Assembly: GCA_976226885.1 (NCBI GenBank)
Contig: OZ320313.1
Location: 66,154,001-66,218,000 of the forward strand
Source of the DNA: Iphione sp. A-MEVVRFRX5
Lineage: Eukaryota
Direction: 5' to 3'
DNA length: 64,000 bases
The notes beneath the pieces are model-generated. The model worked only from the letters and a program-made list of their open reading frames with translations. It was not told the DNA's origin and ran no database searches. A program made the translations under genes and the position numbers. This document shows, piece by piece, positions 23,417 to 27,790 of this stretch; the first letter of the stretch is position 1; every line of letters begins with the position of its first letter.

Positions 23417-23500
23417 TATATATTTTCGCTCTGACGCTTCGTCTCTTCATTCACCTGCACGTCGCCGTTTGAAGTAGAGTGAAAAGCAGTCACTACCAAG
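23417..23500 (+). promoter_or_regulatory. TATA box, Inr and non-coding exon 1 of the secreted-protein gene
   Basis: TATATA at 23417; Inr-like TCATTC at 23447-23452 (A+1 32 nt downstream of the TATA start); strong donor CAAG|GTAAGT at 23500/23501. The link to the 24727 acceptor is inferred. Confidence 0.6.
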
Positions 23501-24727
23501 GTAAGTGGAAACACCGGCACACGTACCCCTCGGGTGCTGTACTTTAGTCCAGACTACACTTCAGTTTAGAGAAAGAATATTCCTTTACATAAAAATATTA
23601 AAAAAGAACAACGATTTTTAAACTAAATCAAAGGAACGAATTTTAAAAGTACAAGAGGCTGAAACAATGTGCGTCTACGTCCAGAAAAGTCAACTTTGTT
23701 AAAGGGATATTTTTAAATCGACATATTATTGAGTCTCTCCTCATGTCATTATCTCCTCTTTCTTCTTCTTCTTCTTCTTCTTCTTCTTCTCGCATGTCTT
23801 TCTATTCATCTCTCTTTTTTCCTAGTCCTGTTCAGCTTTGCACCATCTCCTGTAGTATTCTTCTCTGCGCTTCTTTTTCCTTCTTTCCTAGTTTCCTTCT
23901 CTTGCTTCCACAGTTTCCTGCCCCTACAGTACCCCTATTTGTAATCGATTCCCGAAATTGGAATATACACGGAATATTGCCAGTGGCGGTAATTCATCTA
24001 CCGACATATCCCTGGTGTATATACATGTATCTCTTAACACGTATATACAAGTGTGTGAATTTATATCATGTCGAGGTTTAGAATACAACAGATTCTAGAA
24101 ATAGTAATACGAAATTGGGATAGTGTTTATTTTTGTGCTCTATTGTTATTTGCAATGAATGGAGGCAAGTAGTAGAACCACTTCTGTCTATATATTAACT
24201 GTATTAGTTTAACTCTTATTCGGGTTTCTTTTGGTTGTCATGCGCGTTACTATCCAAACGTGACTTTGAATTAAGGAATACCCGTGTGAATAGGTACTGA
24301 AATATTTGTCTGAACATAAAAAGTACTGAGCCTCTGTGCCGGAGTCACCGTGTGTGTCTCAAGTGACATCTCGTCAGTAAGTAAAAGCCGCAGTGCTTAG
24401 AAGCTTGCAATTTCAAGTATTTAATCACAGGGTGTAGGCGGTGGCTGATTACATATAGACAACCAATATTAATCTTGTTTCACCACATTTACAGTAGTTT
24501 GTACAACAAACACAATGTACGTGAACACTCAGCCCTAATACCATAACTAAATATGAGGGGACTCGCCGGATAGAGAATCGTGGATTGGGTTAGTGTCTGT
24601 TTGCTGTGCTGTACGACCACTCACATTATAACTACACAAAGGTTTACTTTCATCTTCTTCTCACATTATAGAACCCGACATTACGATATATAAATCTTGT
24701 TAAGAGTATCTTTTCTGGCATTTTAGC

Positions 24728-25558
24728 ATGATCTCTCGTCTCACCGTGGTTCTTCTTATCGGAGTTGTTGCCCTTGGCTGGGCAGCACCTGCCGCCGACA
24801 CCAAGCTGGAAGACAGGGAGCTTCTTAAACGTATCCTTTCTGCACTTTCGGAACAGGGTAGGTCTGTTTCCCTTTGTCCGTCATTCAAATCTTGATAACG
24901 TTGAATGCTGCCGCCCGTGTTTACATTGTGTGTGTATGCCATGAACTATACTCATTTGCACTACCTCTGTTATAGTTAAACAATGTTGCATTACAAGTAC
25001 AATGCACATGTACACGTTTTGTCACAAAATTTATAGCGAAAATGAAATATCAATGTAAACATGTTTCATTTTATTAATAGGAAACGTTCATTCAACACTG
25101 AATATAGATGCTAGAAATATGTTTGTGTGTCTAAATTATGAAGATACAATACAAGTCAATATTTAAACATTTATATGAGTTGTAGTATATATTGGTTAGG
25201 TTTTTCTATACGAGCAAAGATTACCATATGCTTGATTTTGGACTTACACAAAGTAACTGGCAAAGAAATATAACGTCCCAACCAGTCTTGTTTTGGACAC
25301 ACTCGGTAGCACACAGAGGGGATAACAGTCATAGAGACAGTCCTGTTTTTGTGGTCACTGGTGGAAATCATCCTTCATGCATCATATGCATACATCATTG
25401 TCACCTAAGTTGACATGACAGGGTCAGTACCCTTAAATTGGCATACATACACACACTTCAGGCCCGTAGCCAGGAAGTCTTGTGGGGGGTATCTCAAATT
25501 AGAGAGGTGGAACTCCTACCTAGAGAGGTGGAACTTCTGGTTAAAGGGATCTTCCTTC

Positions 25559-25603
<45 letters not shown>

Positions 25604-27083
25604 ATCTCTCCCCAACCCCTCTTTCTCATAATACACTCTTGGCTATAGGCCTAGAGAGGTGGAACTCCTGTCTTTTTTTTTCTTTTTTTTTTTTTTTTTT
25701 TTGGGGGGGGGGTACCCCCTGGCTACAGGCCTGTGAAATGAAGCATTTTTCTCTGGATGGAACTTATAGCCCTTCTGGGGGGTATCGGACGATACCCCCG
25801 ATACCCCCCTGGCTACGGGCCTGCACTTGAACAGTAAGCTCGTGCGGTGATGGTTCACAGCACCATCACATTCGTCCCTGTTGATGAGGTGTGTTCACTT
25901 GAGAATCCAGATGGGCCGTATGGATCCAAAGTATTTCAAACTCTCTATTTTCAGCTGAGGAAAAGAGGTCAATGACTTTGTTCTCCTTCAATGCGAAGAC
26001 GGACAAACTGACAGTCAGCTTCCATGCCTGCGTGGAAGGCGATCGTTCCACCACACCATGCCGTCCTGTCACGGGCCACAGCCTTGAAATCCTCGACGAG
26101 GCTGGCGATGTGGTTTGTATCACTTTTTCAGTTACAATCGCTACAGCACCAAGTCAATCATTACAGGCCTGTTACGAATGGGCGTGTGGGTGGGTTCGTC
26201 CGAACCCTCGCACAGATTTAGTAATAAATGGATACAAGCGAGCTTGATTTGATAAAAAAGAACGTACACGGTTTTGATACCAGGTTAAAAGAAAGGTTTG
26301 GAACAGGTCGATACATCAAATTTCAAGAATCAGAGAATGGCACTAAAAAGTACAATGTTCTTCAGTGCAATACTGGATTGATGTTTGGCCCTTAAAACGT
26401 AGTACTTACACAGTATATGCCCCTATTAGACATCCATGCTCCATCTCTTTGTCTACCGGTATATGAATTACAGTTATCTAGCAATACTACAAGTTTGGTA
26501 ATCAATTTTTGTACCTTTCTGAGAGAAGCTGTCTCCAAGTTAGCACGAAAAAATAAACTGCCATGCATAAGGCCTTAAGAAATACATCTATCAGTGTTTC
26601 TGGTGACACGTTGAAAAAAATATAGGGTCGGTAGGCAGGTTTGTAAAAGAGGTCTCTAAACAACAAAAGGGTCTTTCCAAACCTACAACTATTACTTCCG
26701 ATGCTTGGATCTTACACCAGTTCTCTAAGGAAGAAAGTAAGATATATGCTTATGCACATAAAAACGTACATAAGGAGATGAGCGCAGTCCAGGCAGAACT
26801 ATTCTATATTCTTTTTTCTGGCAGCTTTCGAAGTCATACCTTATCTGAGGTATATTGTTTCCAGGTATACAGCAAGACTGTGAAATACCTGGATAACTAC
26901 GTTGGCCCACGTGAGTCCTTTGATCTGTCCCATGTTGTACGGCACGGTGAAAAATACACCATCAAGGCCTGCGAGATAATGGAGAAGGGTGGCCATCACA
27001 TCTTCTGCAACGAGGGTACCATCGTAGGTGGATCAGACGTGAATAATCAGTTCGGAGGAAGCGTAAGCGACACCAAATATTGA
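24728..27083 (+). CDS. Secreted prepro-protein, 168 aa, 3 coding exons (24728-24857, 25955-26112, 26865-27083)
   Basis: GT-AG introns in phase 1 and phase 0 give an open frame: MISRLTVVLLIGVVALGWA-APAADTKLEDRELLKRILSALSEQAEEKR-SMTLFSFNAKTDKLTVSFHACVEGDRSTTPCRPVTGHSLEILDEAGDVVYSKTVKYLDNYVGPRESFDLSHVVRHGEKYTIKACEIMEKGGHHIFCNEGTIVGGSDVNNQFGGSVSDTKY*. Hydrophobic signal peptide, dibasic KR sites, AATAAA at 27284. Confidence 0.88.
25459..25823. mobile_element. Intronic MITE with CAGGCCCGTAGCCAGG TIRs and a 5-bp TSD
   Basis: 16-bp perfect TIRs; CACTT at 25454-25458 and 25824-25828; internal (CT)n, poly-T and a second TIR-like copy at ~25718-25733. Confidence 0.85.
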
Positions 27084-27790
27084 TAAGCTGACACGAAGCT
27101 TTGTCGCGGAGTGCGGTCCTATACCAGAAAAAGTTTCAGTGTAACTCAACTAGGTTTTTAAGTTTTTGATGAGCAGGTCATTGTTGCAACGCGAAGTGGA
27201 ACTTTAAAATCGATACGTTCGATATTTTATCCTAGTAATTACACATGGAATGTATTGGAAAATCCTTCCATTTACGGTATTTGAATAAACATTCAAAAAC
27301 AATTGTCGAATGTTTATTTTTACTTGTAGCGTCTGATTACATTCTGTTAAACGGTGTTAATATTACCAGACAGTCATTTGGAATTAAGATACATGTATTT
27401 TCTGACCTGTGTATTGTCCATAAATCAAAGAAATTTTGTATCTCGATTTACAAGGACAGAAATTCGCCAACTCAGTGGAATATCTTTATTTACAAGTGAA
27501 ATGGGACAATAACCAATAATGAACAATTCACCTTTGGTAATATTCCCCACGTTACACGAAGACACCCTTTAACTGAGGGTACACTATAATCAATTGCATT
27601 TAGTGTATATAACAGTCACCATATGGAAAAAACTAGAGTATGCTGAATGTGCGTTTATATCCTTAAATTATCACTGTCGGGATGTGATTAAATTTCCATT
27701 TGGGCAAGGTAAGGACAACAGGTATCTGTAAAGTGAAGGAGGCTATGGTGGCAGAACAGGATGCGTAGAACAGTCTGGGCCGACAGCTAA

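Follow-up and report, generated by a model that had tools for sequence, protein, structure and literature searches.

Does the DNA of Iphione sp. A-MEVVRFRX5 at positions 66,154,001 to 66,218,000 of contig OZ320313.1 (assembly GCA_976226885.1) encode a secreted precursor protein and, if so, what would this precursor release? The window, by which the whole of this stretch of 64,000 nucleotides is meant, carries on its forward strand, between 23417 and 27289, a candidate gene that an original prediction, made from the letters alone, had described as encoding a secreted prepro-protein with a disulfide-bearing mature domain. A four-exon gene is predicted here at the level of the sequence, and the locus is a real, well-formed and apparently lineage-restricted gene for a secreted protein. 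We give about an even chance to the reading that it encodes a single-copy secreted precursor, cut at a Lys-Arg (KR) site by a convertase and releasing an immunoglobulin (Ig)-like binding sandwich.

Gene model and coding signal

The features of the gene (window coordinates) are as follows.
23417..23423, + strand: TATA-like box, TATATAT
23447..23500, + strand: initiator TCATTC and untranslated exon 1, which ends at a perfect GT donor
24672..24857, + strand: exon 2, with its acceptor at 24672 or 24727, the ATG at 24728 and a phase-1 donor after 24857
24687..24694, + strand: second TATATAAA, a consensus match 41 nt 5′ of the ATG, within intron 1 or exon 2
24728..24784, + strand: predicted signal peptide, residues 1–19
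24785–24857 and 25955–25968, + strand: predicted 29-residue pro-piece, residues 20–48, which holds an amphipathic helix and ends in K47-R48
25955..26112, + strand: exon 3, with the KR site and the first half of the mature domain, including Cys69 (26029), Cys79 (26059) and three predicted strands
26865..27083, + strand: coding part of exon 4, with Cys132 (26970), Cys144 (27006), a predicted hairpin, an 18-residue Gly/Ser/Asn-rich tail and the stop codon
27084..27289, + strand: 3′ untranslated region with AATAAA (27284), then a T-rich element

Gene structure and motifs are seen in the sequence itself. The coding exons (24728–24857, phase 1; 25955–26112, phase 0; 26865–27083) splice into an open frame of 168 codons, and the TATA box, initiator, untranslated exon and splicing pattern of the original prediction were all recovered at their positions, the coding signal switching at the junctions; an AATAAA signal is present as well. 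The predicted start, the A of TCATTC at 23449, lies 32 nt 3′ of TATATAT (23417), and the donor of exon 1 (AAG/GTAAGT, 23500) ranks first among 255 GT sites in a ranking by splice-site weights. A scan of 464 kb on both strands returned 950 TATAWAW sites, 21 of them with an initiator at +28 to +34 and one, 23417, with a perfect donor within 150 nt in addition, by a set of criteria chosen post hoc with the site already known. The protein is unchanged whichever acceptor of exon 2 is used; the second TATATAAA is a possible alternative promoter for a transcript that lacks exon 1.

Coding potential was scored with a 3-periodic Markov model, for which FN3, ankyrin and zinc-finger exons from the same genome served as training set. 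The three coding exons gave, in order, +4.9, +23.7 and +6.7 bits in frame, and all six other same-strand frames were negative. Each exon scored higher than the best of 2000 non-coding draws (−2.5, +2.8 and −10.1 bits), a comparison tilted towards the exons by draws taken from the model's own non-coding training DNA. The signal changes sign at the modelled junctions, falling at 26111 and returning at 26865. By itself the synonymous-codon test was weak (tail fractions 0.28, 0.04 and 0.11). The GC content of the coding exons is 48–55 %, against 37–42 % in the introns and untranslated regions.

These results bear on whether the locus might be a gene that is silent or has died recently, or might consist of exon-like pieces lined up by chance. 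No homologue turned up that would demonstrate conservation, and the coding scores of exons 2 and 4 are modest; yet the frame is intact, promoter, splice and poly(A) signals are complete, all three exons differ from their surroundings in GC content and outscore every non-coding draw, and repeats are confined to the introns. Such an origin is regarded as very improbable.

Predicted processing of the precursor

The 168-residue product comprises a signal peptide, a 29-residue pro-piece ending in KR and a 120-residue domain. Its hydrophobic N-terminus (grand average of hydropathy 2.04; hydrophobicity scan) bears out the signal peptide, which contains the sole Trp of the protein and is predicted by the (−3,−1) rule to be cut after Ala19. 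The pro-piece had been called amphipathic and acidic; it is strongly amphipathic (hydrophobic moment 0.68 at residues 31–41), and its charge is near neutral (7 D/E vs 6 K/R).

Substrates of furin carry R-x-x-R before the cut. This motif is absent from the whole 168-residue protein, so by this rule the KR site is not of the furin type; of the furin or prohormone-convertase processing proposed earlier, the dibasic site and the convertase alternative stand. Signal peptide and dibasic site, by which a prohormone-convertase precursor is recognised, are both present. K47-R48 lies in the context EEKRS, with two acidic residues before it and Ser after it, and sits exactly at the boundary from helix to strand. 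The identical five residues are found at seven sites of SPY, a Platynereis neuropeptide precursor given in the supplements to PMC3890597, a shared context that fits prohormone convertases.

If KR were left uncut, residues 20–48 would stay attached as a helix at the N-terminus, either driving oligomerisation or lying packed against the sandwich, and the product would be a structural protein of cuticle, mucus or tube. The strong amphipathicity of the pro-helix would suit such a role, dibasic pairs arise by chance (two are present), and shuffled extracellular modules typically have, as this domain does, a phase-1 intron directly in front of them. Against this stand the EEKRS context, shared with an annelid neuropeptide precursor and placed at the helix-to-strand boundary, and a sequence free of the repeats and biased composition typical of structural proteins; we regard an uncut product as rather unlikely.

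The mature domain (13.2 kDa, isoelectric point 5.8) has its cysteines at residues 69, 79, 132 and 144, in the order C-x9-C-x52-C-x11-C. No N-glycosylation sequon, no hydrophobic C-terminus or membrane anchor and no KDEL-like end were found in the protein. The gene appears to be single-copy: in searches of the genome (1.18 Gb, 89 contigs) each exon found only itself, a claim that holds at the sensitivity of searches that score few candidates. The paralogue cluster that the original prediction had suggested looking for did not appear within 200 kb on either side of the gene (464 kb in total).

The same gene and fold might instead serve as a mucus toxin or antimicrobial, an effector of defence or offence held inactive by its pro-piece. 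A layout of signal, pro-piece and dibasic site is typical of toxin and antimicrobial precursors. According to PMC4202326, gigantoxin-like Glycera peptides carry signal and propeptide, and Glycera venom glands contain many secreted transcripts without homologues; jaw glands occur in some polychaete families (PMC4280546). The mature isoelectric point of 5.8, however, is not cationic, and five short motifs were absent from two of three Glycera supplement files searched; nothing in the analysis marked the host family as venomous. Such families usually expand, whereas the present gene is single-copy with no tandem paralogue in 464 kb. The effector roles proposed at the outset are weakened by copy number and isoelectric point, and this reading is considered unlikely. 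Membership of an expanded toxin or antimicrobial family, which would be marked by paralogue clusters and a cationic or known scaffold, was rejected on the same two points, at the search sensitivity used, together with the lack of a Pfam or PDB match.

Fold, relatives and known systems

Single-sequence AlphaFold2 modelling was applied to the two halves of the domain. The exon-3 half gave strands at 52–56, 61–69 and 79–87 (predicted local distance difference test score, pLDDT, 70), and the exon-4 half gave strands at 126–135 and 141–150 (pLDDT 50 overall, ca. 60 in the hairpin), in agreement with the beta-rich, 120-residue domain with C-x9-C and C-x11-C pairs described before. Judged by strand limits rather than measured distances, Cys69 and Cys79 flank one loop, and Cys132 and Cys144 are in register across the hairpin. 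Fold searches with the half-domain models gave no informative match.

Exon-by-exon queries of Pfam, NCBIfam, PDB and 1.84 billion protein representatives gave no real relative (Pfam: no match at E≤1 for any exon), with a sensitivity lowered by the division into exons and possibly by thin coverage of polychaete proteomes; at this sensitivity the gene is an orphan, as had been supposed. The top database match, the Anoplocephala (tapeworm) FN3-repeat protein P0001, was rejected: its E-value sums 11 near-identical repeats. In these repeats, as in the mature domain, the tyrosine-corner strand is followed by a C-x11-C pair; the pair is not conserved among the relatives of P0001 itself.

Membership of the FN3 family (PF00041), which the FN3-like ending of the original prediction had brought up, was likewise rejected on its profile. 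This profile was built from 57 FN3 domains, among which a handful of multi-repeat genes from the same genome predominate; against it the spliced domain scored −1.2 bits, a value reached by 355 of the 826 reported shuffles (1000 made), with a whole-profile z of 1.0. FN3 domains are marked by a conserved Trp in strand B, a Tyr in strand C and a tyrosine corner; by eye, the present domain has Phe66 at the Trp site, His85 at the Tyr site and a tyrosine-corner-like motif at 121–127.

A profile of 76 type IX secretion system (T9SS) C-terminal domains, drawn from 80 listed loci of the 120 matched (all four that were checked belong to PF18962), gave 6.8 bits for the spliced domain, with 4 of 2000 shuffles as high; when the pattern-selected motif was removed the score was 7.8 bits and none of 2000 shuffles reached it. 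The whole-profile z values were 4.6 and 3.3, and P is ca. 2×10−4 to 4×10−4 for this one chosen profile. The best-matching stretch crosses the 26112/26865 junction, which scores 6.8 bits compared with at most 4.0 for four alternative junctions. According to PMC11285876, the T9SS C-terminal domain is an Ig-like 3+4 sandwich. To us the match hints at a sandwich of the generic seven-strand, Ig-like type and does not point to kinship.

From these elements the following course can be proposed. The precursor would enter the secretory pathway and lose its signal peptide after Ala19, and a prohormone convertase would cut it after Lys47-Arg48 in granules, where the short amphipathic pro-helix may act as a sorting or masking piece. 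The released 13-kDa product would be an Ig-like beta-sandwich of about seven strands, in which disulfides 69–79 and 132–144 might staple two loops at one pole into a binding face. We infer here the secretion and cleavage, the fold with its disulfide pairing, and the binding role; the domain would act by binding an outside or surface partner, not by catalysis. Gland or neurosecretory cells may be the source, and the protein might serve in recognition or as a cue, in the manner of a pheromone, a hormone or a mucus lectin.

Several points weigh against this proposal. The T9SS family was chosen by eye, post hoc, after FN3 had failed; over a Pfam-sized library its match corresponds to E of ca. 4–10, which is not significant, and the hhalign probability is 30 %. 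Three of the 57 unrelated FN3 controls equal its score with the full profile, and the trimmed whole-profile score is 17.1 against 22.5 for the best FN3 control. Of the seven strands that a sandwich of 3+4 Greek-key topology would have, five appear in the AlphaFold2 models, which cover the halves separately and cannot probe cross-half disulfides. A second KR at 34–35 offers a further possible cut, with an Ile after it, which is unfavourable for cutting. Lastly, the donor at 26112 is weak (rank 35 of 255 GT sites), and 26825, which scores best among 212 AG sites, lies 40 nt 5′ of the modelled acceptor.

The last point opens the alternative of a different last junction and thus another mature domain: 26189/26825 would give, in frame, 207 residues with 8 Cys, and 26112/26825 a truncated form of 103 residues. 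Acceptor 26825 is the best of its class, and donor 26189 scores above 26112. The two extra segments of the longer form nevertheless read as non-coding (−12.2 and −15.8 bits), the T9SS sandwich-profile score drops from 6.8 to 0.9 bits, and the coding signal is lost at 26111 and regained at 26865; either form is deemed very unlikely.

Among known systems, annelid pro-neuropeptides come close: like those of Platynereis (PMC3890597), the present precursor has a signal peptide, a short pro-piece and a dibasic site in SPY-type context, and no Pfam domain was found in it exon by exon. Unlike them, it yields one large folded product of 120 residues instead of short or repeated peptides, has no amidation signal and showed no homology to a known prohormone. 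The architecture is that of a prepro-protein of the neuropeptide or toxin type whose cargo would be a folded domain, and thereby a variant of a known precursor type.

With the T9SS type-A C-terminal domain (PF18962; PMC11285876) the mature domain may share a seven-strand Ig-like sandwich, as predicted; it has weak matches in collinear order over three strands and, at residues 88–96, the I-x4-G-x2-V geometry of the Lb3b4 hairpin motif. It differs in being a stand-alone animal gene with introns and not the tail of a bacterial cargo, in its two predicted disulfides and 18-residue tail, and in that the conserved Lys of the last strand is absent from residues 141–150. That the gene founded an annelid family of single-domain binders of its own, with an Ig-like sandwich derived from a bacterial T9SS domain to which introns, signal, a neuropeptide-type pro-piece and two loop-stapling disulfides were added and which a convertase releases as a hormone or pheromone, is judged highly improbable.

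The cestode FN3 antigens EG95 and 45W (PMC2671473) and Anoplocephala P0001 share the design of a small secreted protein with a single sandwich. EG95 is described there as a GPI (glycosylphosphatidylinositol)-anchored member of a multigene family with a recognised FN3 domain, whereas the present gene is single-copy, has a pro-piece and lacks both an anchor and an FN3 profile match. The class I cytokine-receptor module, given as C-x(9–10)-C-x-W-x(26–32)-C-x(10–15)-C plus WSXWS in PMC10276838, resembles the domain in its sandwich type and in having two Cys pairs with spacings of x9 and x11; it was rejected on the spacing C-x9-C-x52-C-x11-C and the lack of C-x-W and of a WSXWS domain.

Genomic surroundings and significance

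The neighbours of the gene are housekeeping genes: sestrin lies upstream, an ankyrin/SOCS-box gene stands tail to tail with it, and downstream come a zinc-finger and an ETS gene. Repeats within the gene occur only in introns.
25459..25823, strand not assigned: 365-bp miniature inverted-repeat transposable element (MITE) in intron 2, with 16-nt perfect terminal inverted repeats and CACTT flanking both sides
26562..26714, strand not assigned: old dispersed-repeat fragment in intron 3
28398–32824, − strand: gene of the ankyrin-repeat/SOCS-box (ASB) type, tail to tail with the precursor gene, its last coding exon ending at 28398
45690–56700, − strand: multi-exon C2H2 zinc-finger gene with RGRP motifs that we take to be AT-hook-like

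The MITE has an apparent 5-bp target duplication and at least 55 further matches (40 scored of 3104 candidate places); with its CAGG ends, the duplication is presumably reminiscent of the hAT5 type. Elsewhere in the window, a retroelement (57900–63900, − strand) has a 575-residue open reverse transcriptase frame and a decayed second copy alongside; by eye, adjoining frames resemble a DIRS-type tyrosine recombinase, which gave no Pfam match, and gag. Two decayed Gypsy-like elements lie in opposite orientation at 500–3500 (−) and 16100–19100 (+).

An FN3-containing gene is present twice on contig C10 (116.27 and 116.41 Mb, ca. 145 kb apart, near-equal scores), by recent duplication or as an assembly duplicate. 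On the mitochondrial contig (15,000 of 15,544 bases) the recognised protein genes and the 21 tRNAs detected are all on one strand, in an order that we presume to match the dominant annelid one and that marks the host as an annelid; tRNA shifts are seen at cob-L2-W and nad4-C-G-M, and ca. 860 nt between trnA and trnS2 hold no recognised gene. PMC10405356 describes a single order as dominant across Pleistoannelida, with trnG and trnL2 as the tRNAs that most often change place, and these are the two tRNAs shifted here. COX1 fragments on contig C4 resemble a nuclear copy.

Invertebrate genomes commonly hold orphan secreted proteins, and the finding therefore carries modest weight, as a sound annotation and a lead rather than a discovery. 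If the proposal is true, the cargo of neuropeptide-style precursors in annelids would extend to a folded sandwich domain. The domain would also offer a compact scaffold, stapled by disulfides and not glycosylated, with which its partner could be isolated.
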